From Sarea resinae (taxonomy: Eukaryota): 64,000 nt of DNA. How positions within the stretch are numbered: position 1 is the stretch's first letter; every line of letters begins with the position of its first letter. The stretch covers positions 1 to 64,000 of the forward strand of contig JAPEUD010000010.1 of assembly GCA_026026165.1 (NCBI GenBank). Direction: 5' to 3'. The position numbers and the translations under genes were made by a program. The notes under the pieces were generated by a model, which saw only the letters and a list, made by a program, of their open reading frames with translations, ran no database searches and was not told the DNA's origin. Shown piece by piece: positions 1-25,480 of the stretch.

Positions 1-86
1 TACCTATAGCAACTGTTACAAAAAGCCAAGTTCTATAGGTGTTCTAAATTGCTTACCTATCCTATAGAATTAAGCTTAAGGGGGTG

Positions 87-606: not shown

Positions 607-2320
607 TAGCTGATTAGGTAATAGGGCTTAGCTCTATTATCTAATTTTTTAATTAGTTCTTTAGGCTCTCTCTTATAGGCTAGGGAACCCTAGATTTTTA
701 TATAGTCTAAGTTAGGCTTTTTATTAAACCTTAGCTTATAGGGTGTTTTATAGCCTATAGAGCTATTAGGGGTCCTATTATAGAGGTATATAGCAGCTAG
801 AATAGCTTCCCCCTAGAATTTTTTAGGGATATTAGCCTGATTTAGTAGGGCTCTTACTTTATTAAGTAAGGTCCTATTAATTCTTTCTGCTAGGCTATTT
901 TGTTTAGGGGTATAGAGTGTATTATAAGAGTCTATAATGCCTTTTTTAGCATGAAATTCCTTAAACACAGTGTTATTATAGACCTTAGCATTATCTAAGT
1001 GAAATCTTTTTAGCCTTTTTAGGCTTTAATTTTCCTCTTTAGTAATATATTCTTTGAATTTGCTAAAGGTTTTACTTTAATGTTTTAGAAGGTAAACATT
1101 AAGGTATTTTATAGCTAGGTCTAGGAAAGTAACATAGTATTTATTACTACTAGGTGTTAGGGGTTTTATAGGACCCCTTATATTACTACATACAATTTTA
1201 AGGTATTTCTTAGGCTTTTCTACAGGGATTTTACTAGTATGTCTAGTAAATTTAGCCTCTAAGCAGATAGTGCAGTCTTTAATATCTAAGTCTTTAGACT
1301 TAACACTAAGCTCTACATTATCCTCTAGCTTTTTTAGAGCGCTTTCCCCTATATGTCCTAGCCTTTTATGCTATATATCTAGGCTATTATCCTCTATAGT
1401 GCTATTTAGTATTATAGATATAGCCTTAGTCTAAAAGACACTAAGCTTATTAGCATAGGTCTCTTTAGCAGTGATACTACCTCTATTATCTAGGATAAGG
1501 ACATTTTTAGGGCTAAAGTTAACTTTATAGCCCTTATTTATAATTGCCTCTAGGGATAGCAGGTTTACACTAAAGTTAGAGATGTATAGGACATCTCTAA
1601 TATTTACCACCTGATTTGTTAGGGTAAATATTAGCTTGATATCCCCTATACCTGTTGTTGTAGTAGAACTACTAGTGTTACCCCACTTTACAGTAGTGTT
1701 ATAGGGTCTAAGGTTGTTAAAGAGTTCCTTTCTATAGCAGATATGTGTTGTTGCACCTAAGTTAAGAATCTATTCTGTAACAGTGCTGTTTGACTCGGAT
1801 TTTACACAGCTATAGGAAGCTTTAGGTGTAACAGTGCCTTTTTATAGCTTTGCAGCAGTACCTTCTAGGACTGTGCTTGTAACAGTGCATTCTGACACTG
1901 ATTTAGAACATCTATAGGAATTAGAGCTTGTAGCTATAAAGCTCTTTTCCTCTTGTAGTTCCTTTACTGTAGAGGGGTTAGCCCTATGCTTTTTAGCATT
2001 AGGCTTTTTACTCCTTTTTAGGCTAGGATATTTTTAAAAGCATGTAGACTTATTATAATTATTTAGTCTATAATAGTCACAGTGCTTTTTACTCTTAGAG
2101 GTAAGAGCTACCTTTATATCCTTGCTAGTGTTATAACTATTATTACTAGTGCTAGTGCTCTTAGAGATTTTAAACCTCTTAGAGTTATCTATTAGCTGTG
2201 TAAAGATTTCCTCTAGGTTAATATCCTTATCTTTACTTTTGTTTATTGTTTGTGTAATAATAGTAATTATATTATTATAGTTACTAGTAAGGTTGTTTAG
2301 AGTGGCAATATATCTATACT
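607..2320 (-). mobile_element. Ty1/copia internal fragment (gag Zn knuckle, protease, GAG-pre-integrase, integrase core), RIP-inactivated and truncated at both ends
   Basis: Minus-strand translation after RIP reversion gives a CX2CX4HX4C knuckle ~2040-2085, EWILDSGATTHIC ~1740-1775, WHKRLGHIG ~1345-1375 and YTPEQNGLAERINRTLLNKVRALL ~845-915. The PR-INT order is copia-type. Confidence 0.92.
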
Positions 2321-2779
2321 ATTATATAATCTATAAGAACTCTACAATGCAATACTATCTACTTAGGTACTCTATAAGGTATTTCTAACTATAAAGGTAC
2401 TCTATAGTATTGCTATCTATAAATATTAGCAAAAAGAGAAGAGGTCTATATAGATATAGTGTAGATATATAGTATGTAGTACTAGTTCTATATAGATAGT
2501 AGTGCTACAGTATATCTACAGCGTTATATAGCAATATTATAGTATATATACTTGTCTACTAGTAGATATAAAGGTAAATACATCTCTATATAGATATACA
2601 TTGTCTTCTATATACTTGTTATTAGGTTATATATAGTAGATACTTGTTATAATATCTCTATAGAACTTATATATACTATCTGTACTATATAGTGTCTACT
2701 AACAGCTATATAATATTAGGCAGTTGATTTTATACTATATAAGCTATATAAGCTATATAAGCTACACTAGAACTTCTAT

Positions 2780-5760: not shown

Positions 5761-5999
5761 AGTCAACTATAGAGAGTGCGTTGTATTATAACTACATATA
5801 TAGCATTTTAACATTGTAATATCCTCTAGTAGTTGTTGCTATACATGTAATAGTGTAGGTAATTGCTTTACACGTTATATTTATAGAGGCAAGTTTAAAA
5901 GTCTAAAGAGTGACTAAGTTGTTAGTTAGGTGATATTAGTGTTAGTATATAGGCAACCTATATGTTTATACTAATGTAGGTAGATAAGGCAGTGATTTC

Positions 6000-8200
6000 T
6001 GTTTCTATACATATGTTAATTAACACACACCTTTATATTAAGCTTATATTAGGATAGGACTTCCTAAGTATAATTATTATATTGCTCTTACCTAGAAAAA
6101 GCACAAACTCTAGCAGACCTATATAGTACACCTAATTCTATAAGATTAGCACCTTACTAACTAAAGAGACTTAGTAGAGAAAAGCACCTTATTAGCTAAC
6201 TACTAGTAGCCTTTATTGTTTACTCTCTAGTCTCTTAAACTAACTATCTAGGCAATCTAAACAATTATCTTATTATTAGCTGTTAGACATATATTATACT
6301 CTTAATCTAACAAATAAAAGCAAGGCAGCATTATAACGTTGTGTGAAACGCATTATAAGTTAGTATAAGATATATAACACTATCTAAGCAAGGGCTAAAC
6401 AAGTTAATAATTTGATTAGAGATATAATCTAGCAAGTAGACTTCTCTTTAGCCCTAGCAGATTACTTTAGATAATAACCTTAAAGATAGGCAGACTATTA
6501 AGAATGCTTATACATTGTTATCTAAGATTGTTGTAAAAAGGAGCGAGATTAAGAGAAGAGAGAATGTAGTCCTCTTATAACAGATAATAACATAACTAAT
6601 AATAATAATAGAGAAGGTAAAGATAATAGTAGTATATTACTATCTACTAGCGTAGTAGAAATATTAACTTCTAGCATACAGACTCTAACTAGTAAGTAAT
6701 ATCTAATACCTATTTAATATCTATATCCTTATATACTAGATAGTTAAACGTTATATTATCTAGGATATATACTATAGAGAGAACACCTTTAAATTCTAGA
6801 TACACTCTCTTCTATCTTTTTTAATAGAATCTATCTAATAAGTTGTTAGACGCTATATACCTAGCTATAAGATAGTTTAGATAGACTTAGACATTAACTA
6901 CTAGACGTTTTAGATTAAATATAATAGTGAGCTAGAGTCTGCCTTTAAACTTTTTCTAGAAGAAGCTATACGTTTAAAAATTGTAAGTGTAGCCTATAAC
7001 ACAACACTATAACTAACTAATAATATATATCTAGATAACTAGACTATCTTTACCTAAGAGATAATTGTCTACTAATTGTTATTGTCTAGTATCTCTAAAG
7101 AGATATATATCTGTATAAAACTTAATAAACAAACAGATTACAGAAATTTACAATTTAGAAGAAGAGTAAGCAGATAGTATATCACTTAATTGTAGGATTA
7201 GACCTAAACTAATAATATAGGACTTCTATCCTACTAAGTACCTCTTATTACTAGCCCTAAACATGCAAGTAAAAGTAGTCTGCCTTAGAAGAGGCTATTA
7301 TCTTACTACCTAAGTAGTAGTAAGTAGATATACTATATATATCTATTAGACATTACTAAGAGATAACTATTATTATGTATTAGATAAAATTCCTATCTGC
7401 CTTACTAATAAGATTATATACACAGATAAATACAGTATACTAGAAGGACTAAAGAGACGCTCTTATTATTATATATTAGATAGTTTAATTAATTATAATA
7501 AGCGTGTCTAGCGTGATAATAAAAGCATCTCTATAACATGTAACTATAGTAAGATAGTAGGCGTTTAGCAGAAGCTTTCTCTAGTCCTTAGCGAAGAAAC
7601 CTAATTGTCTACTGCACTTTCTTTAGAGGTAGTTATATAATATTCTATTGTATAAACTATATATTAGTGTCTGTTTTAGGTCTATTATATTATCTATATA
7701 ACAAAAGTCAACTAATAGATAACACTATACACTAGTCTAAATATTTGATTAGCTCTGCATAGTAGGTTAGCTACTCTAATTAGCGTTTAAGTGATTTAAA
7801 GACCTACCTTAGCTAAAGACACAGATAAATTTAGTGATAAACTAGACTTAATTTGTATATAAACAAGATAATCTACTAATTGTATTAGTTATTAATCTGC
7901 TCCTATATAGTACTATATACTCTAGTCTATTATTAAGGACTACTATAGCACAATATTATAGTAAGGTATTCTTAAGTATATTTGTATATCTCTTAGTATG
8001 CTATTATACAGTAGCTATACAAATCTAAGTAGACTACAACTACCTACTACATTATAGTCTAAGATATACCTAGGTAAGTACTATATCTACTATAGTACTT
8101 TACCTACCTAACTACCTAGTACACTGCTTATCTATTGTATAATATAAGGTAGTGCCTCTAATATATGTTGCATACATATAGCAGCTATTAGCTAAAATAC
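6000..8200 (+). pseudogene. RIP-degraded coding remnants of unknown function (one or two ORFs)
   Basis: Codon-like, purine-rich + strand stretches with an acidic-tail relic near 6580-6640 and gtaagt donor-like sites. No family assignable with confidence. Confidence 0.35.
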
Positions 8201-8839
8201 AGATTTTATATATAGTGTTACTCTACTATTCTTACTTTACCTCTTTATTTAATATTAAAATGCTAGATATACTACAGTTAATACTCTATTATAAGACTCT
8301 ATCTTAACATTATATTAGCAGACAGTTCACTTAAGTAGTAGACTAACTATTAGACTTTTATCACTAAGTAGATACTATATAAGTAGTGCTGCTATTTATA
8401 TTGCTTTAACCTTACTTCTACACTAATAGCTATCTAAAACATAAGCAAACTATTATCTATATAATATATTGCATATTAGATATAATATTAGTTAGAGGTG
8501 CAATGTTACACACTAGATATACTAATAGCATTAAGTGCTAATAGCTAGAAACAGTTAATAATAGCAACGTTTCTTTATCTTCTTTCTTACACGTTATAAT
8601 GTTATTATTCTTTATCCTATTTAGTTAGATCTCTATTTACTTTATATCTCTATTTACTTCTGCTACTCTTATTTGCTGCTGCTACTCTTATTTACTTTAC
8701 ACTATGCTAACGCGTTATTTATCTAATATTAAAGCTATAAAACCCTTACTACCTAGTCTAGCCTAACTAAGAATTCCTACTAGATATAACCTTACTTTAT
8801 TACTAATTTAGATAATTGTTCTATTAAGATTAGAGTGTC

Positions 8840-9300
8840 TACTTAGGTACTTACTAGGTAGGTAGAGAGGTATATACCTGCCTACCTATAGGTAGCAAGT
8901 ACTTATAGCAGTATGTACCTGCTTAATAGGACCTAATAAGTAGGCTTAGGTACCTATTATATGACTTTTTTATAGGTACATACCTATTATATAATTATAA
9001 GAAAGGTACATACCTAGTTATGTTAGAGGTACGTACCTATTTTATGTACCTAAGTATATTATTACCTATAAAATGTTACCTCTATATATTACTCTACATA
9101 AAGATTTTTGCTTATCTTATCTAATAAGCAGATAATCTAATAAGATCTACTTATAGAAACCTAATAGGTAGGCTATAGGCTCTACAACTAATTAAGCCTG
9201 CCTAAACCTAACCTAATTATGTAATTAGGCAGGCTAACCTACCTAAACCTTAATTTAGGCTAAGTACCTAAACCTAAGTAGATAGCCTAATTAAGATATT
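8840..9300. repeat. Cluster of short repeats and palindromes resembling a DNA-transposon subterminal region
   Basis: Repeated (g)tacctatt units at 8950-9070; inverted pair agcctgcctaa (9195-9205) / ttaggcaggct (9225-9235); aacct/acctaa repeats. Confidence 0.5.
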
Positions 9301-10599
9301 AACTTTATTTCTAGCCTTATTAGCTCTCTACTTATATTCTCTTATATTTTATCTTTTAGCTTATTATATCTCTCTTAGTCTAGCAGCCTAATTATTCTTA
9401 TTATACTAAACTTAAGTTTAGTGCTATACTCTTAGCCTTAATTACTTTCTACTTATTCTCTCTACTAGTTATCTCTCTACCTCTTAATATATTATAACAA
9501 TCTAGCTAAGTAAGCTACTCTCTTATTATACAATAAATATAACTAATAAGAGATATAATAAGATATAGTTTGTTAACTAGAACAAGAGATAGTTATAAGA
9601 CCTAATCCTTAAGTATAAGAACTTATAAAAAAGAGGCTATTAGAAGCGTACTTAAATCTAGGTATTATATTAAATAAAGCTAAGACTAGATTACAAAGGG
9701 CTATCTAGCAAGTATTATCTGACTATAGCTGCACTAACCTTTAAGCAGCAGGAAATTATACAGTTAACACTATAATAGAAGATGTAATACAGTCTACTAA
9801 CTTTCTAATACTATTTACAGACTAAATCAGAAGATAAGCTACTAGATAGAGCTATAATTAGGAACACCTATTTATTATTATACAAGATGTTTATAAGAAG
9901 CTATAAGACAATATAAAGAAAGAACTGCAATCTAAAAGTAGAACCTTATTATTACTCTTATCTAACGCCTTTAGTACTTTAGCTACTCCTTACTAGCTAG
10001 CTCTCTTTTAGTAGAAAGCCACTAAACAGATATTGCAGCAGCTTATAGAAATATCTATAAGTAAGAGATATATAATTATATTAATTGAATAGCACTTGCT
10101 AACAGCTAATAGACATTTAATATAACTCTAATACCTTTCTACTTAGTAGTCTTCTAGTAGTTACTATCTATACACTAGCTTCTTCTTAGTATAAAGCTAC
10201 TAACTAGACTATTTAGCAGCTTATAAAGACACTTATAAGTAGGAGATATCTAATTATATTGATTAAATAGCACTTGCTAACAGCTAATAGACAATTAATC
10301 TAACTCTAATACCCTTCTACCTAGTAGCCTTACTACTCTCTATACACTAATACCTTCTTATCTACTAACTATCTATATAGCACCTCTTTCTATAGGACTA
10401 CTAATAGGTAAGAGGTATATATATTTATCTATTAACTAATATTTACTAATAGTTAATAGATAACTAACTAGCTAAATAGTATATAACAATAGATAATAAG
10501 ATAAGCACCTAACTTTTCCTACTATTATCTCTAACTATAGATAGTATCTGTAATATTATTGCTAGGTTTATCCTATAAGCAGCGATTATTAATAAGATT

Positions 10600-12219
10600 A
10601 AGACAGATATAGAGAGAGAGAAGATTAGATTAGAATATAATAAAGAGGTTGTACTAGTACTTAAGTTAAGCCTATAACTAATTGTATTCTATATTGTAAG
10701 TGTCTCTTTATAGAAGTACATTGATTTCTAGTTGTTAACCTTATATAGGATGTAAAACATAGAAACCTTAAGTAGGCTAGTAATAACTTAGTTTCTATAT
10801 AGATAAGACCTAGACTAGGTATATACACTGTCTGCTATAAGGTATTATATCTAGTCCTAATACAGTTGTTAATTGTCTAGTGTAACAGACTATTTAATTG
10901 TCTAACTAGAGATATATTATATAAACCTAAATATAATAACACTAAATACTACCTTACTTTCTACTACTAAGACTAGCTAACACCTACTAAAGAGTTAGTT
11001 ATTAGGCCTTGTAGCAAGTGTTAGCTAGTCTAGTAGCACACCTAAGTTATTATTACCTTTGCTATAGAAAACTTAACAACTATCTAAGAGTTAGTTACTA
11101 GGCTTATCTAAGAGTTAGTTGCTAAGCTTATCTAATAGTTAGTTGCTAGGCTTATCTAAGAGTTAGTTGCTAGGCTTATCTACAAATAAATTGCTAGTTA
11201 TAGATCTAAGATAAGGTTGTTTACTAATAACACTAAATACAACCTTACTCTCTACTACTAAGACTAGCTAACACCTACTAAAGAGTTAGTTGCTAGGCCT
11301 TACAGCAGGTGTTAGTTAGTCTAGTAGCACACCTAAGTTATTACTATATTAGCTAAAGGAAACGCAACATCTGTTACTAGTTCCTAAGCTAGGTCGCTAT
11401 AACGTTAAGTGTAAGCTGCTAGACTTAAACGCAGTACTATTCTTTATTACTATAGAGCTAACTCTTTATAGACCTATCACTGCAAATTAAAGATAATATT
11501 TCTAATAAGCTTATATATAACCTAATAAGAGATAAGGCTAATAAAGAAGATATTAATAGCAAGGATACTAATAAAGAGGATGTTAAAGATAAAGATAATA
11601 ACAAAGATAACATTAATAACAATAATAGCAACAAAGATAACGTTAATAACAATAATAGCAATAAAGATAACGTTAATAATAAAGATTATCTACCTATTAA
11701 AAACAATAATCTGCTGCCTAATAATCCTCTAAATAATAATCCGCTACCTAATAATCCTTTAAATAACAATCTACTACTTAATAATCCTCTAAATAATAAT
11801 CTACCACCTAATAATACTCTATATAATAATCTGCTACCTAATAATTATCTATATAGCACAGAACATTATCTGCCTAGTAAGTACTAGAATAATAAGTGAT
11901 AACCTCTACTAACTTTTGTCCTTACTTTATAGGCCTCTAAGACCTTAGTGCTTTTGCTAGCAAATAGTATAACAAATTAGAGAGAGTAGATAACCTAATT
12001 AAGAGAATAAACCTAGTAATAGCGAAACGCTAAACAGTTATTTAAAATAGTCTAGCAATTTAACACAACACACTCTAAATGTAGAAGGATATAGCAGCTA
12101 TATTCTTTATTCCTAAACACACTGTATTAACAACCTAAATACCTATAAAGCTACTATTCTTTTAAGTATCTATTTAACTACTACTATATTAAGCTACAGC
12201 TATTATGTTTATATTACGT
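10600..12219 (+). pseudogene. 5' part of SNF2-family helicase pseudogene with low-complexity insert (split by gypsy insertion)
   Basis: Degenerate motif-I-like FLV(A)(D)P...KT segment at ~10,725-10,770, followed by acidic/Pro repeat relics. Contiguous with the 3' part once the element at 12,220-23,430 is removed. Confidence 0.45.
10936..11880 (+). repeat. Tandem/low-complexity repeat array
   Basis: ~120-bp direct duplication (10,936 and 11,227), 24-bp unit ttatctaagagttagttgctaggc x4 (~11,081-11,182), and 30-bp unit aataatctgctgcctaataatcctctaaat x5-6 (~11,700-11,880). Confidence 0.85.
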
Positions 12220-12545
12220 TGTAGTAGAGTTAATAAGTTAGTTAGTTATATAGAGAGCAGTTAGAGAGATAGGTTAGCGCAGCTGTTTATTATAGCACTG
12301 TTTCTTGCTTTATAAGTAGCTTCTAGTTCTTTAGTTTATTATATAATTTAGTTTAGATCTTCTTACTAGTTTAAGTCTAGTAAGCTAGCAAGTTAGGTTA
12401 TTTAAGTGCGTTTTATATTTAGTTTCTAATTGTTTAACATATATATCTAGCGTCTTACTCCTACTGCTATTGCTGTATCCTATAGTCTACTATATATATC
12501 CTTTACTTCTTACCTCTAAAGAAGCAACTATTAAAGCCCTTTATA
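12220..12545 (+). repeat. 5' LTR of gypsy element 1
   Basis: tgtagtagagttaataag...gccctttata; direct repeat of 23,105-23,430 with only transition differences. Confidence 0.95.
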
Positions 12546-13014
12546 TTAGTGACCTATACAGAGTATAAACAACTTAATCTAACGCAAAGAATTGCTTAAA
12601 TCCTTAGAGTGTAAGAGAGTACCTAGTTAGCGTTAAGGGGTTAGTGTAGCACTACATGCAATAGCATTAGAAATTAGGCACCTAAATAGAGACGCTTTTT
12701 ACTAGCCTAGCTAGTAAAAAGACTAGGTCTTAAGAGTAGTGCAAGTAGTTGTTATAGCAACTATAGCAGTGAAATTACAATTAGCACGTTGTTTGCTAGA
12801 TTATAGTTAGGTTGCTTATACGCTAAGAAGTGTTAAGGGTTACTAAGAGAAAAGAATTAAGAGAGTAGAGATAAAGAGAAGTAGTAAGGCGTGTTATAAG
12901 TGCTACAAGTGCGTATAGCGTAGGGCAAGGTGCTACTATAAGAGTTATATAAGTCCTTTAGCTGATTTAGAGCTACTTTTAGGATTTATCTTTAGTTTCT
13001 TACTCTTTATTACA

Positions 13015-15444
13015 ATATCTAACTCTAGAATAGCTCTATCTACTCTGTCTAGTACTGTTCTAGCACCTGACATTGTAATGCTAGACGTAACAACGTAGTT
13101 AGCAACTACACTAGGGATTAGAACTCTTATTAAATTAGCTGCCCTAAGCTAAAAGAGTATAACCTCTTTTAAGCAGCTACTATAAGATAACGCGCAGCCT
13201 AGCGCATTTTAGGTTCCTATACCGCTGCCTAGGTCTGCTAGAGCACTCTATTTCACTAGGTAGAATATCACTTTATTACTTAAGCGCTTTAACAATCTAT
13301 ACAACAAGTATTAAGTTAGTAAGAAAGAGCATTTTAAGAAGTTGCTACGCTATTACAACAAATCTATAGGCCTCTTAATTAAATTAGCCACTGCCTACTA
13401 AGGCAGAGACTAAGATACTCTAGTCTATACACTTTATAAGGAATAGAAAAAAGAGTATATAGAGCAGCGTATTTACTCCTAAGAATTCCTTAAAGAGTAT
13501 AAAAAGATGTTATGTATATTAGTAGATAAGGTTTACCTCTTTTACTAACAGTTTGCTAGCATCTTAATAGAGCTAGTTAAGCGCAGTGTCCTTAATAAAT
13601 ACACCTAGTGCAAGTGGTTTCTAGATAGACTTCTAGTTAAAATAAAGCACTATGTAGCGCGAAAGTCTAAAGTTAACTTTAAAGACTATAGTACTCTTAA
13701 CTTTAAAAAGATACTTAATATAAGCCTTAAAGAGTGTAAGAGTATAGTAACTCTAGAGCACCTAGATAGGTAGCAGCCTAAGAAGAGTATTGCAACACTT
13801 ATAAAGGAATATTAAGAGCTAAAGGTGTATAATACAGCCCTTACTCTAGCAGCTCCTATAGTTCCTAAACCTTCTCTTACTCTAGCACTAGGTATAGACG
13901 CTCTTACAAAAGCAATAGAGGCGCTAGCTATGCTAATTAAGGTTATATTAGTATAACTTAAGAAAGAAGTAGTAGTACTACTAAAGGAGAATAAAGGACA
14001 GCTTAACCTAGCACCTTAGGCACTCTATACACTTGCTAGTATTGTTAATACAGTTAGCGCAGCTAGCGCTGCTAGTAGTAGTGTAAGAGAGAGTAGTTTT
14101 ACCTAGATATATCTTATATACTAGTTAGAGAAGCACTAAAGTAAGTCGCGCTACCTAGTACTAAAAGAATTTCTAGACTAGAACAAGGTGTACTTTAATA
14201 ACTTTAGGAGAGTATATATTAGCTAGATAGTAGACTAGGGTCTAGAAATCCCTATGCCTTTCTAAAACTCTAGCATAACATTTAGGCAAGCTATAAGAGA
14301 GGCTATACAAGTAGAGGTAGTAAGGTCGTGTCGCTCTACACTAGAAGATATCTACGCTATAGCGTTTAGAGTTGCTTACCTTTATACTAAAGCAGTAGAT
14401 ATAGATAAAGAGGCAGAAGATATTGCTAGCCTAGAGAAGGTTAGTGTGAATAGCGCTAGGCTAGTAGAGGCAGCCTAGTGTCTATAGCTAAAGGAAGCCT
14501 AAGTTAGATAGAATACTATATAGAACCTATAGGCCTATATAATAGCGCCTAGTAGTTCTAAGTTAATGCTAAGTGTCTCTTAGTATACCTTCTCTACTGC
14601 AAAGAATATTAGGGCTAGGTTATATAATAAAGTTAGAGATAATATAGAGATAGTAGACGCTAGAGGATTAGTATAAGTCTAGTTACTAAAGCTAGGAAGT
14701 AAGAGAGCTAAGAAAGGCTATAGCAAAGATAAAGATAAGACAGCTATAGTAAAGAAGATAAAGGATGTTTTAAGAGATAAGTAGAAAGCTAAGCTAATAA
14801 TAAAGCAGATACTTAGGTAAGTAGTAGATAGGATCACTATTAGAGACTTGCTTAGTGCCTCTCTAAGTCTATAGAAGATAATGTTCTAGAAACTAAGAGC
14901 TTTAAACGCTAGTGCTATTAGCTAGCTTCCTAGTAAGGTAAGAGTAAATAAGGTAAGGTTAGAGAGTAGTGTAAAGAAAGGCAGTATTGCTAAGTACACT
15001 GCCTTATTACTGCTAGCTAGGATTAAGATTAGGAGTTAGGACTTTAATATGTTAATTAATATAGAGGCTAAGGTTAATCTTATAAGCAAGGAGATAGCGC
15101 TAGCCTACTAGCTAAACATTTGTCCTAATCCTAATCTTTAGCTTATTCTAGTTACTAGTAGTAAGAAACCCTTTATAGAGGTAGTAGAGAACGTTAGAGT
15201 AGATATTAGCAGTATACTAGTAGTGACCTACTTCTTTATAACAGCTGCTACTAACTAGAAAGTGATTCTAGGTTAACTCTTTAGTCGCTTAATACACCTA
15301 TAACTAAAGGATATGCCTAATAAGACATATATAGTAACTATCTATAGTAAGGGCTAGTAGAAAGTCCTGTTTAATAGTATACTAAAGACTAGGTAAGGAT
15401 ATAAGTTAGAGGAGCAAATCTTCTTAGTAGAGTCTCTAAACTAA
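13015..15444 (+). pseudogene. gag-protease ORF of gypsy element 1
   Basis: One frame from 13,015 (ATA from ATG) through the P.PGS.GAPYFTG.N gag start to LINIEAKVNLI (LIDTGAEVNLI, 15,052), ending ...SLN* at 15,444. Confidence 0.85.
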
Positions 15445-18400
15445 GAGGTAGGCCTATAATTAAGTGTGTATCTGCTAATAAGAAAAGCTTAGCTAATACT
15501 ATAACAGCAATTGCTGCTCTATTATTTAACTAGCCTAGCTAGCTAAATAGGACGACTGCTGCAGAAAGTTAGGCCTAGAGTTAGGTACTATAAGAAGTGC
15601 TAAGATAGTTTTGCTAGGTTAGTTATCCTAAAAGAGGATATTAGATATTATAGAGGTTCTAAATACCTCTAAGAAGTAATAGCTAGGATAGCGCTATAGT
15701 ACTTACAGTGTATAAGAAGAAGAGAGAGAAGGTAAGACTAGTAGACTAAGCTGCTAGTAATAGATTAAGACTAGAGGTGTTTTCTAAGTAGAAAGAGCGA
15801 GTTAAGTCTAAGCTTAATAGCACCTCTAGTAAGAAAAGCAAGAAGTAGAGAGAGTAGATCACTCCTAAGTTTTCTAACATCCCTTAGAGGTTGTAACTAA
15901 CACTAGATTATATAGACACGCTGCTTATTAGTGATAGTCTAACTAACACTAAATTAGATCTCTTCTATACTATATTGTTTAACTAGGAAGCTGTGTTAGT
16001 ATAGGAACTTAGTGAAATAGAGAGAGTTTAACCTAAAGTAGCTATACTATAGCGAATACAGACTAAGGCGCACTAAGTATAGTAGTGCCCTAGGTTTAAA
16101 GCACCTTATACACTTAATAAGACAGTTATAAGTATACTATAAGAAAGTTTAGCGGCTAGAGTCCTAGAACCTTACTATAGGCTATACTAGAATCCCTAGT
16201 TTTTAGTGAAAAAGAAGAACAACAAATACTAGTTAGTGAACGCAGCTATAGTAATTAATTGTGTCACAATCTAGGATGCTAATATACTACCTAATGTTAA
16301 GGAGTTCTCTAAAGAGTTTGCTAGTTTAAGTGTAACCTTACTAGTTAACCTCTTCTCTAGATATAACTAGATACTATTAGCTAAGGAAGACTAAGACCTA
16401 ACTGTATTTATAACTCTGATTAGGTTGTTGCGCTAGACTACACTACCTTAAGGTAGCACAAATTTAGTGGTGTAGTTTGTCTAGATTATTAGCTAGGTAT
16501 TAGCAGACCTTATTCTAGAGACCTACTATATCTTCCTTAATAATATTAGTGTTAAAGGGCTAAAGTTAAGGTATAATAATAAAGAAGTTGTACCTAGTGT
16601 GCGCTGATTTATTATAGAGTATATACACTTAATTAACACAGTTCTAGTCTGTCTTAAACTAGTAGAGTTATACGCTACTAGAGGAAAGTTACAGTTCTAT
16701 ATACTAAGGCTTACTATTATAGGTTATATCTGTAACTCTAATAGTCGCTACCTAGACTAGGAAAAAGTAAGTAAGATTGTTAACTAGGCTCTTTACTAAG
16801 ATATTACAGCTATTAGAGCGTTCCTAAGAGTGTGTATATACTACTAAATCTAGATTAAGCTATTTACACTTATTACTAAGCTGTTGTTTTAACTCCTTTA
16901 TAAAGAGGCAGAGTTTGTTTAGGGCCTAGAGCAATAAGAGGCTATAGACTAAATAAAGATAGCGCTTACTACTACCCTAGCCTTAATCACTATAAACTAT
17001 AACCTAGATACAAGCGAGATTATCCTAGGAGTTAATACTAGTCTTATTAGGTATAGCGCAGTACTAATACAGATAGATATATTAACTAGAAAAAGGCATC
17101 CTACTTACTATAAGAGTAGTATATAGTCACTAGCTAAAAGCAGGTATAATGTAGAAAAGTAAGAGTGTTAGAGGATCCTTAAGGCCCTTAAGAAATTCTA
17201 ACTGTACCTGTATATATACTTCTTTATTATTAAGACTAATGCTAATACCCTTGCTACTTAGCTTAATTAATCTGCTAAAGACTTACCTAGAGCACTAGTG
17301 ACTTAATAGTTAGTATAGATTTAACTGTTTAACTTTAAGGTTTGTTATATACTAGGATAAAAGCACACTGCTATAGATAGTCTATTGTAGTATCTCTTAT
17401 AAGATTTAGACCTTAACTCTAGTCTAGCAATAGATATAGACAATTATATTAATGCAAAGTTAGATAGTGTACATGTGTTTCTAGTAAGAGTAGCCTAGCA
17501 GAATAAGTTAGTGGCTCTAGTTCTAGTAGATAGGTATTCTAAAGAGTATTAAAAATTAGCTGCCTATCTAAGAACACTAGCTAAACTAGCTAGGATAGAT
17601 ATAAAGGCCTTTTAGCGATTTAAGAGGTATACTCTAAAGTTTATAGTAGAAGATAGTCACCTATATTGTTGTTTAGATAAGGGTGTGCCTCTTTAACATG
17701 TAATTAACTACCTAGACTAGAAAGTAGAAGTTATTTAGCGCCTCTATAAGGAAAGAGAGCACTGCAGCTAAGAAAGAACCTTTTATTATATCTCTAAGCA
17801 ATACTAGTAGGAGAAGATATATAAAGATATAGAGAGGTTTATTAGGATATGCAAGCTATACTAGTTAAGAGTGCTAGGTTAGGAGAAAGAAGCCTTACAC
17901 CTAATATAGTTGTTTGTTTTATAGTAGAAGGTTAGTATAGATATTGTTTCTATACTAGAGTGGTCTAGAAAAAGGAAGATTGTGTTTATATAAGATAACC
18001 TCTCTAGCTAGGTTAAGGCACACACGCTTAGTTATGCAACTGTAGAGAAAGTAGCGCAATTTCTTTAAGAAGATATAATTTGCTAGCACAGCTGTTTTTA
18101 ACACTTAGTCACTAATAGTAGGCCTAAAAACTAGGGGTTGCTTAATACTCTTATAGAAAAGTACAACATTAAGCATGTTATAGCCTTAGCGTATTACTTT
18201 TAAGGTAATAAGCTAGTTAAGTAAGGATATAATACAATTGTTAATGCTCTTTCTAAGCTAACTAAGAGTAGAAAGACTAGCTAGGTCTTATATCTTTATT
18301 CTACATTATAGGCTAATTAGTTAACAGCGCGCTCTACTACTAGTATAACACTATATCGCCTTTTATATAGCAAAGACCTTGTTTTTCTAATTAAACTTAA

Positions 18401-19170
18401 TATCCTAATATAGTATATTCTTCTATAGAAAAAGCAGCTCTTATAAGGTAACCTGCTAGCGCTACACGCTAGGCAACTAAAGAGATAGGATAAGGACCTT
18501 GCTAAATTAGCGGCTTAGCTTTATCGCTATTATATAGCTAGTAAGAACACATTTAATAATGCTTACTAGGTCTATTATAATAAGTTTAGTGTAGGAGACG
18601 TTATCTTGCTCTATAACATAAGGTTAACAAACTACTATAATATAAAGCTTTAATATTACTAGCGCAGACTATACTGCATTAAAGTTGCAGACACTATAAA
18701 GAGAATGTACTTACTAGTAGAATTAGATAGTATATCTATCTCTAGAACAGCGCCTAGGAACTGTCTAAAACAATTCTATACTTGTAATAAGCTTAGGTAT
18801 AATAAAGAACGCCTGCTAGCAAGTAATAGTAGTAAAGAAAATTTTAGCGGCCTGCTAGTAGACGCCCTTAACAATAAGAATATAGGTCTATAAGATAGGA
18901 GCGCAGTTAGTAAGAGTGACTTAGATAGTAAGGTAATAGCCTATACTGCCTATAATTATAGCAGACTAGCTGTAGTATCTCTTATAGACTAGCTACTTAG
19001 CCCTAGTATAGATAACTCTAACTTAGTAGCAGAGACAAACTAGTGTCTAACCTAGAGCGCTGCTAGGGCGCGCCTTTAGCTACTAGTAGTGCTAGCTATA
19101 GCACTCTAAGTTACCTAGCAAGATGTTCTTATAGGTAGAAAGTTTGCTGTAGTAATTCTACTACGCTAGT
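15440..19170 (+). pseudogene. pol (RT-RNase H-integrase) of gypsy element 1
   Basis: FLNNISVKG (FLDDxGVKG, 16,533), PWFLVKKK relic ~16,193, RNase H (D)ASL.GYG ~17,035, integrase SGWVEA ~18,003 and AYY.QGN.LVERG ~18,188. Confidence 0.9.
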
Positions 19171-20383
19171 CCTTATTATACTTATTAGACTTGCCTTTAA
19201 ACTAAGATTTAGTATTAGAAAGCTCTACCTCTATATCTTTATCTTTGTTTATTTAGCCTTTATCTAGATTAGAAGGCTATACCTTAGTGTCTTAATCCTT
19301 ATCAACATTCTAGCCTCTATTAAAAGCTTCTAAAGCGCTTAGCTTGTTTATAGTTTTAGATAAACTAGTAGAAGCTATACTTAAACAGCGGCTTCTATTT
19401 AGTATAAGAGGCTTCTTAAATTAATAACCCTTATAAGCTGCCTAGCTATAGAAGCTCTACTTATAGTAGTAGCTCTCTAAGAGAGAAGACTACTAGTACT
19501 ATAAGTAAGGCTTCTATAATAATTAGTAGTATCACTATATTTAAAGGATTAAGGTATAAAAAGGCTTACAACCTTAGCCTAAAGCTATAGGTCTATTAGA
19601 GACCTGCTTTAAGAGACTTATATATAGCTAATCTCTATAACTAGTAAGGTCACTGCTACAGACCTGCTGTAGCAGCAGAAAAAGAGAAAATTAAGAAATC
19701 CTTAAAAATTTAATTAAAAAAAAAAAAAAAAAAAAAGTTGAACTTTATAGCCTAGACAAGCAGGAATAACAGTGAGGAGCTTTTAACTAGCCTAGCTAGC
19801 TAAATAGAGAGGAGAAGAGAAGATATATATATAGCACGCATATAATATATATGCTAATACTAGCTTAGATATTATTATATAATAGAAGAAGTGTAGTAGA
19901 AAGAGAAGTAAGTGTTACATTATAAGAGTGCTATATATATATAGTTAGTTTGTAATAAAAGAACGCACTATTAATGCACTATAGGTTGTAAACAAAGAAA
20001 ACTCACTTATAGTTACACACACTTGTTTTCTTTGTTATAACCTGTGTTTCTAACAGCAACTACATAAGAAATTCACTTTCTACTTAAATTCTACTCACAT
20101 TTTAGCCTGCGCTACATATAAAAAGTAAGGTGAAACTAAGGTAGCAGTGAATTTAGACGCATATATTGCTAGCTACTACGCTACTTAACTATATATCACT
20201 TACTCTCTACCTACTAAACTTATCTAAGTTTCCTAACTCTCTTTAACTTTTGTCTTATTCTAATTGCAGCACTTAGATCTTTATATCTTTATATTATTAA
20301 GGAAACAGTTATTATATTAACATTATATTATACATCCTTCTTATCTCTTAAATTCTTATTATACATGTATCTAAATTAGTATT

Positions 20384-23068
20384 ATAGCAGACTACACACT
20401 AGTAGCAGTTAGTAGAACAACATTCGCTAATGTTAAAGAGCTTACAGTGTATCTAAGAACATTGCCTAAAGACAAGCAGTACTAGATATAGGCAAAGGCC
20501 TCTAAGTTTGTAATAAACTAACTAATAGTAATAGATAAGCAAATTAAAGCATTTTAAGAATATATGTAAAAGGATAGAGTATAGAGAACTAGGCTTACTA
20601 AGGTAGAGTTTAACAATAGATAGTTAGCTATATTAGCAGCAGCAAAGACATTAAAGAAAGGACAGCAATGTGTTAATAAGGCGCAGAGTTAGATTTGTTT
20701 AGTGTAGGGCGCAGAAAATACAAATAGTATTATAGAAAGGCAGAACATATATTATACATTAACAGCTATATAAACTCTTACTCTTAAAGCATTCTTTCTT
20801 ACTGTAGTAGATTAGCTAAATCGCGTGCTGCTTACACAATTAAACAATCTAGGACAAGGTATTAGTAATAAAGCAAAGTACACCTCTATAGACTTTATAA
20901 AGGCAGCAAAGGCTAACGCAGACTAGAGGTACATTACTAATAACAAACTTATATAACATTGTCTTAAGCAAGCTAAAAACAGATTGCTTATTCTGCGTAG
21001 CATAGAACTATTAACTAAAGAGTACACTTAAACAATTGTTAGGAATAATAATAAGGATAGTAACACACTATAAGTTAATAAGGCAATAAGGTATATAGCA
21101 CTTCCTATTAAAAATACTGTCCTAGTATCTTCTACTCTATTATCTCTTAGACTAAGTTCTTTTAGCTAGCCTAGCTAGTTAAATACTTCTATTAAGCAAG
21201 GTAGTAAGAAGCAATAAGATAATAAGGAAAGAGGTATAGCAATAGCTACTGCTAAGCTAATACTAGAATCTCTTATAGCAGCGTCTTTTAACTAGCCTAG
21301 CTAGTCTAGTTATAAAGACATTAACTATATAGAGTTAAGTAAGCTATTAGACGTTAATAATAAAGAGAGTAGCTTATATAAAGAAGGTAAGAGAGTAAGG
21401 CTAGCAAAGTAATAACAGTTAGCTAATAGCAATAAAAGCGCAGATAATAACAATATAGAGGTAAGATACTAGTTATATAAGTGTAAAGAGAGAGTAAGCA
21501 AAAGACTACAGATAAGAGCAGAGTTAAAACAGCGCCTTATATTAGGCAAGAGCATTAAACTAGTAAGTCTATATATGTTATACTTTGCTAAGAGTAAGTA
21601 TATTTATCATAAGCACTTAAGAGGCGCTAGCAGAAAACTCAGCTTATAGACACAATTATTAAAGGATGCTAAGCTATAGAAGAGAATTAGAGTTGTCTAT
21701 TAGAAGCGCAGAAATTTAGGCTAGATTAAGATAGTAAAAGAGACATTTTTCTAGTTCTAACTAGAGAATCAGCCTCTGCACCTATCTAATAGTCTTAGGC
21801 TATATTGCTTTGTCTATAGAGGTCTACCCCTACTAGTTATTAATGTGCAAAGGATTTTAAAGGGCTTTAGTAAGAGAGTAGAAGCAGAGTTTCTTACAAC
21901 TAGCTCTATATCTCTACTAATTTTTAAGTAGTAGTTTAATAAGAGAATTAAGAATATAATTGCAGCAGAATTTAACATGTACTACTACTATTGCTGTTAG
22001 GTAAATAATAAGCTAAACTATAAGTAGTTAAGAGCTATATTTTACTCTCTTATATAACAGCTTATAAGAATAGACTCTACCTACTACATGTTATATGTAG
22101 CACTCTAGCTAGACTATATATAGAGGCTTATCTTATATCCCTACTATATAAAGCACGCGGTTCTTAGAGACTCTACCTATTTTAGGCACATTGATTTAAA
22201 CATTCTCTAGCTAGTTTAAGAGGGCTATAGCGCAAACTAAATTTAAGGCACACTCTTATTAGATAATAAGGACAATGTAAATTGTATAGAGATCTTACTA
22301 GGTATGTATAAACATCTAGAGGAATAGTAGGAGCGTGTAGTGCAGAGGAGAAAGCAGACTAATAGGCTTATATATCGCATTAATAATACTATTTACAGTC
22401 TAGAAGATATAGCGCACTTTAAGACTAATTAGATAAGAGTTCTATATAAAAAGAGGATAGTATAAATTACATTTCTATATCTTCTATATAGATTGACTAG
22501 TCTTATAACTAGGGTACACTAGACTCTCTTACTATAGTTTATAGCAGTATAGGATAACTATTCTATATTAGAGGTGCCTAAATTAAGGATATAGGAAGAA
22601 ATATTAGTAGTGTATTATAACTAGCTCCTTAGCTCTAACACTCTGTCTAGCTTTGCTAATTAGTATAGCAGTCCTCTATATAGCTTCTTAGCTAGCTTAG
22701 CAATTACTAGTTTAAGGCTAATTTTAGATGCGCTTCTTAGAAGAGTCTGCTAAGATACTCTTAAGGTAGTAGGTATATAAGATATACTTCTAGGTCTAGA
22801 TCGCGCTAAGGCTATACAGTACTATAAGAATTAGCGAAAGGCTGCTATTAGTGCCTTTTAAGTTTCTTTCTACAAACTAGAGAAGGCTAAGATGTTTATA
22901 TTTAGCGAGAAATCCTATTTCTACTACTTAAAGAACTATATTAATATAGTTAGCAATAATAAGAGAGAGGTTTCTAAAGCAAAGGCAGCTATATATAGGA
23001 CTACTACCCTTAACAATATAGATACTAGTAAGGACAAGCATATTAATAGCAATTTAATAGATAAGTAG
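20384..23068 (+). pseudogene. Extra ORF (~895 codons) inside gypsy element 1: Cys/His cluster plus 2OG-Fe(II) dioxygenase-like (PhyH-like) domain
   Basis: Frame is the same at 20,384, 22,181 and the TAG at 23,066-68, and the internal stops fit RIP changes. FRHIDLN is intact at 22,181-22,201. A distal PC..G.VRIT.PHLPHG is inferred at 22,442-22,492, followed by R.TLLPWF. Confidence 0.75.
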
Positions 23069-23104
23069 AAGGTATAAGACGCCTTCTATAAGAGTAAAGA
23101 GGTA

Positions 23105-23430
23105 TATAGTAGGGTTAATAAGTTAGTTAGTTATATAGAGAGTAGTTAGAGAGATAGGTTAGCGCAGCTATTTATTATAGCACTGTTTCTTGCTTTATAG
23201 GTAGCTTCTAGTTCTTTAGTTTATTATACAATTTAATTTAGATCTTCTTACTAGTTTAAGTCTAGCAAGCTAGCAAGTTAGGTTATTTAAGTGCGTTTTA
23301 TATTTAGTTCTTAATTGTTTAACATATATATCTAGCGTCTTACTCCTACTGCTATTGCTGTATCCTATAGTCTACTATGTATATCCTCTACTTCTTACCT
23401 CTAAAAGAGCAACTATTAAAGCCCTTTATA
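23105..23430 (+). repeat. 3' LTR of gypsy element 1
   Basis: 326-bp direct repeat of 12,220-12,545. Confidence 0.95.
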
Positions 23431-23434
23431 ACAT

Positions 23435-25480
23435 AACAAAAGCAATAGAATTAGAGAGAGGTTTTTAGCAAATAGGATAGAGTTTAGAAAGGTGTGTGTT
23501 TGTTATAGTGTCTCTTTAATATATACTTAAATTAATAGCTAACACTTAATCTACTAGCAGACACTAATAACATTAGCTCTTATTACTACTTTATAGACCT
23601 TATACTATAATTACTTAGATATAATAAAGAGTTAGTAAATCTATAATAAAAGATATCTAAGGGCTAGTAGTAGGTATTATCTGTATAAGACTTTAAATAT
23701 TATATGACATTTTACTTACACTTATATTTATTAGATAATATAGATAACAATACTAAATACAGCGTTAAGTGTCCTAGTAACAACCCTTATAAGATATAAT
23801 GCCTATATTAACTAGGATCTATAACCTCTTAAATCACTATAGATAGAGGAGTAAATATAGTTATATGCCTAGCATATCTTACTTGTATATAAGTGATAGA
23901 ATACTAAAAGTTGTTTACTATATAATAGATTGCTAAGAACCTAATAGTTCTTAAGCACAACTAATAGAAACATAAGTTTATAGACTTAATAGAAACATAC
24001 TCTAGTAGCAAATATATAAGATTAAATGTTATCTTAGTAACATTGTTTAAGTGTTTATAACTTTGCTGTAATTTGTAGGCAGAAACTTAATTTTAGCAGA
24101 TAGTAGTAGATAAGGCGCATATTATTAAATTAAAGAACACTAACCTAATCTAAGACCTAACTACCTTAAGATAAAGCTATAAGGAACACTAGCCTATAAT
24201 GTAGTTCCTCTCTAGCACTCTATTTGTTGTGCCTAGAGACTTAAGAGAGAAGGTAAACATTCTTATATATACCTAATAGACAACTAATCTCTCTTGCATT
24301 AGATAAAAATGCTTGCCTAAAAAGTTAGACTTTATTAAAAGTTAGTACAAAAATCTATTTAATTGTATAGCAAAACCTAACAGACTGTAACTGCCTTCTA
24401 CTAATAAAGACTTTAATTAATATGCCTAGAATTTTATTAGCTTCCTTAGCGTGCTAATAATCTAACAGGATAAAAATGCAGTTAACCTAGACAGCTACCT
24501 GCTAATTAACCTCTTACTATTCTATAGATATAAATTGTTAGTCTAGTTTAGCAATAACTGCTAGAAGATAGTATACAAACAATAGCAAGCTGTTATAGTA
24601 GTAAAAACAAACTAAATTCTAGAGTTAAATAAAGGATAACATATTACTTTAATAATATATTTCTAATATGTATAGCGACTACAAATTATCTCTTTATTCT
24701 TAGGCCTTACTTACTCTAATCTAGCTAGGTTAAACTAAAGCTTATTAAGCGTTAGGTCTATAGCTACTAAGGATTAGGAATTATATCTGTTGTATAACAA
24801 TCTAGAAATACTTAGCTAGTTATCCTCTAAATTAAAAGCACTAGATAATCTTATTAATAATATAGAAGTGAATTTAAGGATAGAGAGTAAAAAGATAGTT
24901 ATCTTTACTATATTCCTAATCACAGCCTTTATTATTATAATAGTAAGTAGCATTTATCTACTAGATAATACACTTAGGCTAATAGCAGATATATAGTAGA
25001 TAAAATATATTAGATGCAAGCTAGTTACTCTATTCTATAGTAGAATCTCTATAGCAATGCGCTTAAGGTTAGTAGAATAATTCTAAGGCACTATAGATAT
25101 ATTCTCTAGCTTAGAACCTTTTTACTTAGTTAGGATAATAAGTATAATATTACTAGGCTTAACCTTAATTCGTGCAAATCTAGTAGTTGTCTTTAAACCT
25201 AATTATATAGATACCTCTAAGCAATAGACACTTAATAGAGTTTATTGTATTAGCTAGTATAGCAAAGTAACTTTGTATTAATTTATTAACACTAAGTCTG
25301 CAATTAAGAATACACTTATAGCTACTTAGAGGTTAAGAGGTATTCTAAATAATATAGCCTTAAAGAAGAACAATCTGCTAGTTCTGCTATAAGTTAAAGT
25401 TAAGATTAGCAATAAAGATAATATAGATACTAAAGATAACAACCCCTACTATTAACTCTATAATATATAAAGAAGATAAA
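23435..25480 (+). pseudogene. 3' part of SNF2-family helicase pseudogene
   Basis: KIVIFTIF (motif IV, ~24,892) and GLTLIRANLVVVFKPNY...KQ*TLNRVYCIS* (~25,155-25,260), which reverts to GLTLTRAN.VVVFEPD...EQQALDRVHRIGQ, SNF2 motifs V-VI. Intron-like gtaagt...ctaat...tag at ~24,944. Confidence 0.82.

Follow-up and report, generated by a model that had tools for sequence, protein, structure and literature searches.

A decayed Ty3/gypsy retrotransposon of Sarea resinae with a third gene for a predicted PhyH/DUF1479-type oxygenase

Why should a fungal retrotransposon of the long terminal repeat (LTR) type contain, in addition to gag and pol, a gene resembling those of Fe(II)- and 2-oxoglutarate (2OG)-dependent oxygenases? 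The question is raised by a 64,000-nucleotide stretch of Sarea resinae DNA (GenBank assembly GCA_026026165.1, contig JAPEUD010000010.1, positions 1 to 64,000 of the forward strand), here called the window, in which the region 20384-23068 had been proposed to be a dioxygenase-like gene belonging to the LTR element around it. We find that the window contains, at 12220-23430, an 11.2-kb Ty3/gypsy element from a Pezizomycotina group, killed by repeat-induced point mutation (RIP), with a separate third gene lying between pol and the 3' polypurine tract (PPT). In this group the product of the gene, open reading frame (ORF) 3, measures some 900-990 aa and has four parts, i.e. a helical N-terminal domain, a disordered linker, a Cys/His cluster and an oxygenase domain of the PhyH/DUF1479 type. 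The central proposal, that the element carries an oxygenase-like gene of its own, is thus upheld, by the predicted fold, the HxD...H...R residues, the recurrence of the order gag-pol-ORF3 and purifying selection on ORF3. It is rare for an accessory gene to become fixed in LTR retrotransposons, and where one has, it usually marks a point of pressure between element and host.

A RIP-killed third gene between pol and the 3' LTR

The element is bounded by a direct repeat (12222-12545 and 23107-23430; 324 nt, 95.99% identity, 10.9 kb apart). The repeat search gave this 324-nt core; the LTR limits used here were set by eye, at 12220-12545 for the 326-bp 5' LTR, recognized by its match to the 3' LTR, and at 23105-23430 for the 3' LTR, both on the forward strand. 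Between them lies a decayed pol (15672-18872, forward strand, codon start coordinates 0 modulo 3), identified by Pfam matches and by tblastn with intact pol sequences from two of the metagenome loci described below: residues 115-1146 of L015 pol align to 15672-18779 (E 3e-132, ~1030 residues), and the L033 gag-pol aligns to 15858-18872 (E 2e-108). A remnant of the protease motif, LINIEAKVNLIS (15052-15087), lies in the gag-protease frame, which is -1 relative to pol. It is followed by a remnant of the reverse transcriptase (RT) YxDD motif, IFLNNISV (16530-16553), by RNase H (16929-17225; Pfam RT_RNaseH_2 1.5e-7 and RT_RNaseH 1.6e-7, stops being read as X) and by the integrase H2C2 zinc finger (17727-17858; Pfam Integrase_H2C2 0.0034, below its cut-off), with the integrase core and an SH3-like region extending to about 18700. 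The domain order protease-RT-RNase H-integrase identifies the element as Ty3/gypsy.

The ORF3 remnant, recognized by homology and by stop density, occupies 20384-23068 on the forward strand. Its coordinates confirm the ~895-codon frame that the original prediction had placed between the LTRs, after integrase and ending 36 bp before the 3' LTR: the terminal TAG is at 23066-23068, 36 nt ahead of the 3' LTR, and the first codon, ATA, was by its sequence probably once ATG. The 895 codons include 55 stops counting the terminal one (36 TAG, 19 TAA, 0 TGA); with 54 internal stops the frame is therefore not open. No stop-to-stop ORF of at least 80 aa was found within 12000-25000. Across 20320-23020 the ORF3 frame has the lowest stop density, with 4-8 stops per 100 codons compared with 7-22 in the other forward frames.

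The decay has the character of RIP, to which the original prediction had rightly attributed the stops, all of which are TAA or TAG. The GC content of the window is 25-36% over its first 38 kb and ~45-54% in the remainder, and the dinucleotide ratios of the element differ from those of the GC-rich half of the window (TpA/ApT 2.09 versus 0.69; (CpA+TpG)/(ApC+GpT) 0.51 versus 1.29). Of 161 alignment columns with a conservation of 50% or more in 85 homologs, 85 differ in the window copy; C>T or G>A changes alone account for 67 of these 85 deviations, compared with 1 for the reverse direction and 5 for a transversion control. The ORF3 stops fall at consensus Trp (7), Arg (3), Gln (2) and Leu (1). 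Judged by its sequence, the window copy is a RIP-killed, dead relic whose ORF3 is no longer functional, and its value is as a pointer to a protein family.

That family was reached by phmmer, using the window frame with X at the stops as query against 1.84 billion representatives, which gave 518 matches at E<=1e-3, 287 at E<=1e-10 and 45 at E<=1e-30 (best 2e-74). This exhaustive search was needed because a word-indexed protein search using the RIPped frame returned 1 protein only. In the best phmmer matches, full-length members align colinearly with two parts of the query, residues 7-207 and 366-853. A hidden Markov model (HMM) of the family's N-terminal domain matches the window at 20363-21016 on the forward strand (E 3.9e-13, profile positions 15-213). 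Because its N- and C-terminal parts match in order and the N-domain HMM also matches, the remnant is a copy of a full-length gene and not a fragment. The HMM of the dioxygenase core matches at 21902-22930, forward strand (score 237, positions 3-345 of 348), which is its single match across the window in all six frames (E 2.4e-72). A Pfam scan assigned no family to the window ORF3 frame or to the ORF3 of L015.

Fold and active site of the ORF3 family

The ORF3 family consists of Pezizomycotina proteins of about 850-1000 aa, the named members of which are annotated as 'hypothetical protein' or, occasionally, 'PhyH'. They derive from Sclerotinia, Coleophoma, Venustampulla, Xylona, Coccidioides, Rhinocladiella, Penicillium, an Onygenales species and several lichen fungi. 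One member (P0185) bears a Sphagnum (moss) label from its source, which probably reflects fungal DNA within a plant assembly; another (P0101, 1289 aa) is fused to a C-terminal Ulp1 (Peptidase_C48) domain.

The fold was assessed on an AlphaFold model of the intact homolog P0002 (57 aligned members), and not on the window copy. The predicted local distance difference test (pLDDT) score of the model is 80.9 overall and about 95 over residues 380-890; the layout is a helical domain (1-205), a disordered stretch (206-364) and a confident C-terminal half (380-890). Modelled alone, the N-terminal domain has a pLDDT of 84.5, and its helices reach ~90 in homolog models. The original prediction of a helical N-terminal region followed by a low-complexity linker thus has its counterpart in the homolog model. 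A Foldseek search of the PDB with P0002 gave 124 matches at E<=1e-3; all 32 rows listed are PhyH-clan enzymes, other 2OG oxygenases or DUF1479 proteins, with DUF1479/YbiU, proline hydroxylase H11, EvdO1, SnoK and EctD at the top.

Structural comparison by VIA-align, which is independent of Foldseek, ranks YbiU first (Z 20.4; 277 residues aligned, root mean square deviation 3.2), followed by GIG2 (Z 18.9), EvdO1 (Z 16.3) and human PhyH (Z 14.6), and then by PHD2 (Z 11.3), a P4H in complex with EF-Tu (Z 10.5), Tpa1 (Z 9.6), OGFOD1 (Z 9.2), NgTET1 (Z 8.8), JMJD3 (Z 8.7) and ALKBH3 (Z 8.5). The best matches, YbiU from Yersinia and E. coli and GIG2 from Candida albicans (PDB 4rgk, 7twe and 6akz), resemble the family over 277-281 aligned residues with a Foldseek probability of 1.0 and share its HxD...H...R arrangement, but they have a sequence identity of 13-14% and are single-domain enzymes of ~400 aa. 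We know of no link between YbiU/GIG2-type proteins and mobile elements.

The relationship is also visible, faintly, at the level of sequence profiles. Pfam PhyH (PF05721) matches 7 of 28 members at E<=0.01; its gathering cut-off of 22 bits is exceeded by two of the 28 (36.1 and 22.2) and by the ORF3 homolog of L064 (24.3), five more being sub-threshold. Despite the best structural Z scores, no DUF1479/Gig2 (PF07350) match was found in the 28 members at E<=0.01. By profile matches, the family is hence best described as a distant branch of the PhyH clan; it is a relative of DUF1479/Gig2 by structure, and not a member by sequence. In the Protein Atlas, the PhyH/Gig2-like clusters score 0.85-0.86, below the 0.9 guide value, which makes them a lead only. 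The folds with which comparison had been suggested, i.e. PhyH, TET/JBP, AlkB and JmjC, thus separate clearly: the modelled double-stranded beta-helix is closest to the PhyH clan, whereas assignment to TET/JBP, AlkB or JmjC was rejected, none of these having a Pfam match in the 28 members at E<=0.01 and their representatives NgTET1, ALKBH3 and JMJD3 scoring far below YbiU. An env-like identity of ORF3 was dropped on the basis of the model, which predicts a soluble helical domain plus an enzyme fold, a rejection made without a transmembrane or signal-peptide test.

The active site residues are those of a 2OG oxygenase. H630, D632, N634, H730 and R740 (P0002 numbering) are at least 90% conserved. 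Among 83 aligned rows, the first His column holds 75 His, 6 Tyr and 2 Gln, the Asp column 68 Asp and 15 Asn, and the distal His column 66 His and 17 Tyr. The Tyr and Asn states are those that RIP produces and occur in all 11 AT-rich LTR-borne rows displayed, the base composition of deviant active-site rows having been checked for those 11 only. The intact LTR-borne copies L013, L015 and L033 read HDN..HG..RR, and RIPped LTR-borne copies have changed from His to Tyr, from Asp to Asn and from Arg to Gln, Trp or a stop. The model and these conserved residues together predict that the ORF3 product is a PhyH/DUF1479-type Fe(II)/2OG oxygenase with an HxD...H...R site in the family; neither the lack of a beta-helix fold nor the loss of the HxD/H triad, either of which would speak against such an enzyme, is seen among homologs.

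The window copy retains part of this site. The motifs YPYY.KH (at 22136), FRHIDLN (22181-22201) and (P)GMH..WW (at 22295) are present, and both the His (22187-22189) and the Asp (22193-22195) of HxD are intact; each motif listed in the original prediction corresponds to a conserved family motif. Its distal HG and R.TLLPWF motifs hold for the family, which has PHG and RRT.LPWF, but not for the window copy: LYR at 22484 stands in place of PHG, with the distal His now Tyr (22487-22489), and H-stop-TLLL-stop-F (22517-22540) in place of RRT.LPWF, the two Arg positions having become His (22517-22519) and a stop (22520-22522). Upstream of the core, the forward-strand segment 21476-21619 holds the remnant of a C.C...C..H cluster equivalent to C382, C384, C425 and H428 of the family. 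In 57 full-length members C382 and C425 are invariant and C384 and H428 at least 90% conserved, so that the CxC...CxxH-like cluster originally seen in the window is borne out; from this conservation pattern it is a possible zinc site.

On the fold alone, ORF3 might be taken for a small-molecule oxygenase carried as cargo, i.e. a metabolic enzyme of indirect benefit to host or element. Its best-characterized structural neighbours (EvdO1, proline hydroxylase H11, SnoK, EctD and PhyH) do hydroxylate small molecules or amino acids, and the Atlas clusters nearest to it, at 0.86 and so below the guide value, are PhyH/Gig2-like. Such a role would leave unexplained the 500 conserved residues that extend the N terminus and include the Cys/His cluster, as well as two observations described below, selection at the level of pol within a retroelement and the recurrence of mobile-element and helicase genes in the neighbourhood. 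We regard it as distinctly improbable.

Recurrence of ORF3, selection and possible roles

Scanning metagenome contigs with the family alignment yielded 80 loci, of which 23 are informative, having at least 4 kb of sequence upstream of the gene or a visible pol. In 12 of these 23, gag-pol lies directly upstream on the same strand. The most complete is L015, with 279-nt LTRs that are 99.6% identical, a 4-bp target-site duplication (CTAC) and three intact ORFs, i.e. ORF1 (gag-protease), ORF2 (RT-RNase H-integrase, in the -1 frame) and ORF3 (988 codons, open), the last of which stops ~40-50 nt ahead of the 3' LTR, as in the window. Its sister L013 also has intact ORFs; the contig ends within its 3' LTR, of which the 127 nt present match the 5' LTR at 100% identity. 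L033 belongs to a different lineage, again with intact ORFs, in which gag and pol are fused and a weak chromodomain match is present. L037, L042, L050, L055, L067 and L068 are RIPped copies whose LTR pairs have an identity of 91-96%, and L048, L076 and L080 are partial copies with gag-pol-ORF3. Homologs are thus not simply single-copy host genes with sister elements that lack the ORF. In five further loci a fragment of the integrase C terminus lies just upstream of the gene, in two distinct sequences (L016/L017/L020 and L078/L079).

L016 is unusual in its own right: a divergent tandem paralog (ORF 4938-8069, core HMM score 54) precedes the integrase C-terminal fragment (8588-9452) and the full family gene (9764-12721), downstream of which are a JmjC fragment and an ankyrin ORF, the JmjC match belonging to a separate neighbouring ORF.

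The elements also share their 3' architecture. The junction between PPT and LTR (GAGG-TA, then TGTGGTGG) is common to all three lineages, being RIP-altered in the window. In L013 and L015 a PPT block (TAGGGGACA...G[C/T]GGGGGAGG) occurs twice, right after the pol stop and before the 3' LTR (8295-8330 and 11620-11650 in L013; 7128-7164 and 10439-10468 in L015), with its variable base co-varying between the two elements. The duplicated block may be a central PPT or the footprint of an ORF3 insertion or capture. Longer forms in which ORF3 is fused to pol were sought among 2008 candidates and none was found at E<=1e-5, which is weak evidence. ORF3 mRNA is probably spliced or internally promoted, and so separate from that of pol, as the two genes are divided by stops and by 350 nt or more of spacer. 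In L015 and L013 a polypyrimidine tract with CAG behind it, ~150 nt beyond the pol stop, is a candidate splice acceptor. Among the 7 sequencing runs listed for L015 there is none of RNA.

That spacer is the feature of the window copy most suggestive of a one-off capture, a nested insertion or chance, i.e. of an ORF that is no part of the element's design. The end of pol and the pre-ORF3 spacer fill 18873-20383 on the forward strand, and the spacer itself (19100-20383) is ~1.3 kb long, whereas intact relatives have only ~350-460 nt at this place. An A-run of ~24 nt lies within it near 19713-19737, as does an inverted self-match of 72 nt, though a weak one (19447-19518). As the spacer is ~0.9 kb longer than in the relatives and has the A-run, something appears to have been inserted or expanded here, and part of the spacer may be a later insertion, possibly a small retro-insertion. 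The copy is also the only one within the window. An accidental ORF would not, however, be expected to recur on the same strand, in the same order and equally far from the 3' LTR in two other lineages with intact ORFs, nor to have a ratio of non-synonymous to synonymous substitution (dN/dS) of 0.07 or to be colinear with full-length members from residue 7 on, and this account is hardly credible.

The selection estimate comes from the comparison of L013 with L015, for which dN/dS is 0.176 for ORF1 (gag-protease), 0.085 for ORF2 (pol) and 0.071 for ORF3, with an ORF3 dS of 0.33. By this measure ORF3 is under purifying selection as strong as that on pol; because it is, we infer that the ORF3 of intact elements is likely an active enzyme on which propagation of the element depends. 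The PhyH/DUF1479-type gene has thus been kept across at least three gypsy lineages and is constrained as pol is, and its product seems, from these sequences, to matter to the element's own spread.

Need for the enzyme does not by itself specify its target. ORF3 could be a replication co-factor that hydroxylates the element's Gag, protease or integrase, or a host factor for translation, assembly, nuclear entry or integration. The ORF3 dN/dS would be expected on this account as well, protein prolyl hydroxylases (PHD2, the P4H with EF-Tu, OGFOD1 and Tpa1) are among the VIA-align matches, and a long disordered linker and helical N-terminal domain would suit docking between proteins. The protein hydroxylases score well under the small-molecule PhyH enzymes, however, and family members flourish away from retroelements, in settings that offer neither Gag nor Pol as a substrate, so that we consider a co-factor role rather unlikely.

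The members outside LTR elements bear further on function. No gag-pol lies upstream in 11 of the 23 informative loci, comprising the five with an integrase fragment and six without any pol remnant upstream. A Pfam neighbour scan of 15 long loci (92 of 119 ORFs, overlapping ORFs being dropped) found RecQ-like DEAD helicases beside or near the gene in L004, L006, L064 and L074. The L074 enzyme is RecQ-like by its match to RECQ1 (5.7e-25) and a full-length homolog of the L006 helicase (27% identity over 689 aa, E 7e-69), whereas the L074 and L006 dioxygenases lie in distant clades of the family tree. SNF2 helicases were found in L014 and L058, rva_4 integrase-like genes in L011 and L058, a Clr5 domain in L058 and a Plavaka transposase in L039. 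The L014 contig begins with telomere repeats (2-100), ~7 kb from the dioxygenase homolog. From these surroundings, the copies with helicase neighbours may represent a second kind of mobile or subtelomeric module.

The family's home might be another selfish or chromosome-end module, in which it acts together with RecQ-like or SNF2 helicases at DNA ends, in recombination or in subtelomeres; gypsy elements would have gained the gene from it once or a few times, for the same role in DNA transactions, e.g. at complementary DNA ends or in target choice, and not for anti-silencing. The pairing of homologous helicases with distant dioxygenases in L074 and L006, the SNF2, rva_4 and Plavaka neighbours, the gene 7 kb from telomere repeats in L014 and the member fused to a Ulp1 protease fit this account, and telomere-linked RecQ genes are known in fungi, according to the available part of a preprint (bioRxiv 10.1101/2024.02.27.582403). 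Set against it are the occurrence of telomere repeats in 1 of 80 loci only, neighbours that vary from locus to locus, and LTR elements that have no helicase; we hold such an origin to be unlikely.

The reading that we prefer, tentatively and with less conviction than would make it probable, is that ORF3 is not metabolic and would instead have a macromolecular target tied to the DNA, RNA or chromatin of the element, oxidizing a defence mark or factor so that new copies escape silencing. It draws on the extra domains, on the neighbours of the family, and on analogy with DNA transposons that carry TET/JBP enzymes and with an orchid gypsy element that encodes an AlkB enzyme. Hints of a macromolecular target are the ~500 extra residues with conserved domains and, for the non-LTR members, the RecQ-like (four loci), SNF2 (two) and integrase-like (two) neighbours. 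In such a scheme the extra domains would direct the ORF3 protein to element-linked DNA, RNA or chromatin, where it would oxidize methylated nucleic acid, or a chromatin or silencing protein, of the host's genome defence, and new element copies would thereby evade silencing. Taken whole, with the decayed element, the predicted enzyme, its importance for propagation and this role combined, the explanation is the best that we can offer and falls just short of being probable.

Several observations weigh against this explanation. Where the substrates of PhyH-clan enzymes are known, as they are for most of the top matches, they are small molecules or free amino acids; to our knowledge no substrate is known for YbiU or GIG2, the nearest folds; and the folds known to erase silencing marks, those of TET, AlkB and JmjC, score far lower (Z 8.5-8.8). 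The N-terminal domain gave no Foldseek match at E<=1e-3, and its best VIA-align score (Z 7.4, to generic helical repeats) is inside the tool's stated noise range. The selection estimate derives from a single comparison, that of L013 with L015; the 12 LTR loci trace back to a small number of sample series and add just two lineages to that of the window; and since flanked non-LTR members sit in other contexts the gene can live without a retroelement. The phylogeny adds to these points. In a quick maximum-likelihood tree of 83 core domains, including 14 LTR-borne rows, the latter fall in three places (4 changes), non-LTR members are interleaved with LTR-borne ones, and the window row forms a long, compositionally biased branch. 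A tree constrained to hold all 14 LTR-borne rows together has a log-likelihood 5.9 above that of the free tree and is not rejected by the approximately unbiased test (p-AU 0.55), and the sequences are therefore compatible with a single acquisition of ORF3, without proof of it; L046, on a short contig, joined the LTR-borne group only after the tree had been inspected.

Precedents exist for the general arrangement. A Ty3/gypsy element of the orchid Phalaenopsis, as described in the available text of PMC9289625, has an extra ORF with an AlkB-type 2OG-dependent dioxygenase domain, which shows N6-methyladenosine (m6A) RNA demethylase activity in vitro and is proposed to act against host surveillance. 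Like the elements described here it combines a gypsy LTR element with an additional Fe/2OG dioxygenase ORF, but it is from a plant, ~25 kb long and AlkB-like, whereas the elements here are fungal, 10.6-11.2 kb long and PhyH/DUF1479-like with large extra domains, and are known from sequence and model. In fungi, KDZ/Plavaka and other DNA transposons carry TET/JBP dioxygenases, which the authors speculate counter methylation or C-to-T hypermutation (PMC12730594, available text). These too are fungal transposons with an accessory 2OG dioxygenase gene; the carriers, however, are DNA transposons and Helitrons, the enzyme here is not TET-like, and the 2025 survey by Kojima, in the same text, reports no retrotransposon with a TET/JBP gene and raises the question of why this is so. 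The Boty-like gypsy element BcGypsy1 of Botrytis cinerea, with its gene brtn, is a further fungal gypsy with an extra gene, likened here by description only; brtn is antisense according to a cited title, and the available text of PMC8365987 mentions a dioxygenase 0 times.

Our literature search, with Repbase and subscription journals outside its scope, found no report of a 2OG oxygenase, PhyH-like or otherwise, in an LTR element of fungi. ORF3 thus belongs to a kind already known, the transposon-borne 2OG oxygenases, while the fungal LTR carrier and the PhyH/DUF1479 type are new as far as we could find; the original view that the module had not been described stands for fungal LTR elements in the literature searched and gives way before the orchid AlkB precedent (PMC9289625, available text). 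Through the element, a hitherto uncharacterized family spread over several Pezizomycotina classes gains a testable context, and because intact copies exist the ORF3 protein is directly expressible.

Were ORF3 to act on silencing marks or factors, it would represent a novel form of counter-defence among those fungi in which RIP and DNA methylation operate, and would also provide a hint to the function of the orphan DUF1479-like fold. One can go further and suppose that the enzyme guards new gypsy copies by oxidizing 5-methylcytosine or another mark deposited by the RID/DIM-2 and H3K9 pathway, or by inactivating a protein of this pathway, and that the family is shared with helicase-bearing modules of a subtelomeric or mobile kind. 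In this specific form the proposal is unlikely; if it is true, ORF3 would be the first enzyme directed against silencing or RIP to be carried by a retrotransposon in fungi.

Further features of the window element and its surroundings

The 5' LTR of the window element begins with TGTAGTAGAG, a RIP-altered version of TGTGGTGGGG, the start of the LTR in intact relatives. The LTR has TG at its 5' end and TATA at its 3' end, where relatives read CACA, a RIP-compatible difference. Immediately 5' of the 3' LTR is the PPT, aagagtaaagagg (23090-23102, forward strand), which occupies the same position as GGCGGGGGAGG in L015. A candidate 4-bp target-site duplication, ACGT at 12216-12219 on the forward strand, has as its partner ACAT at 23431-23434, one G>A change apart; being short and RIP-altered, it is suggestive only. 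A primer-binding site was not identified in the element.

Upstream of pol, a decayed gag-protease frame (codon start coordinates 1 modulo 3), recognized by the lowest stop density, extends over approximately 12800-15560 on the forward strand. The intact gag of L015 has a weak tblastn match to 13216-13383 (E 0.002), and no Pfam family matches the frame at E<=0.01.

A 24-nt near-palindrome, TTTAACTAGCCTAGCTAGCTAAAT, is present in three copies within the element, at 15525-15548 (the protease/RT junction), 19782-19805 (the spacer) and 21161-21184 (the ORF3 linker); two of the copies are exact and one has 2 mismatches, compared with a chance expectation of zero, and the 14-nt core of the motif was found in 0 of 80 related loci. 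Just upstream of the element, at 11671-11858, is a tandem array with a 15-nt period and eight overlapping 68-nt copies. On the minus strand of the first ~3500 nt of the window (~1-3500), the translation resembles a decayed copia-like gag-protease-integrase (e.g. KRLGH...DCTICLEAKFTR...), a resemblance unconfirmed by profile.

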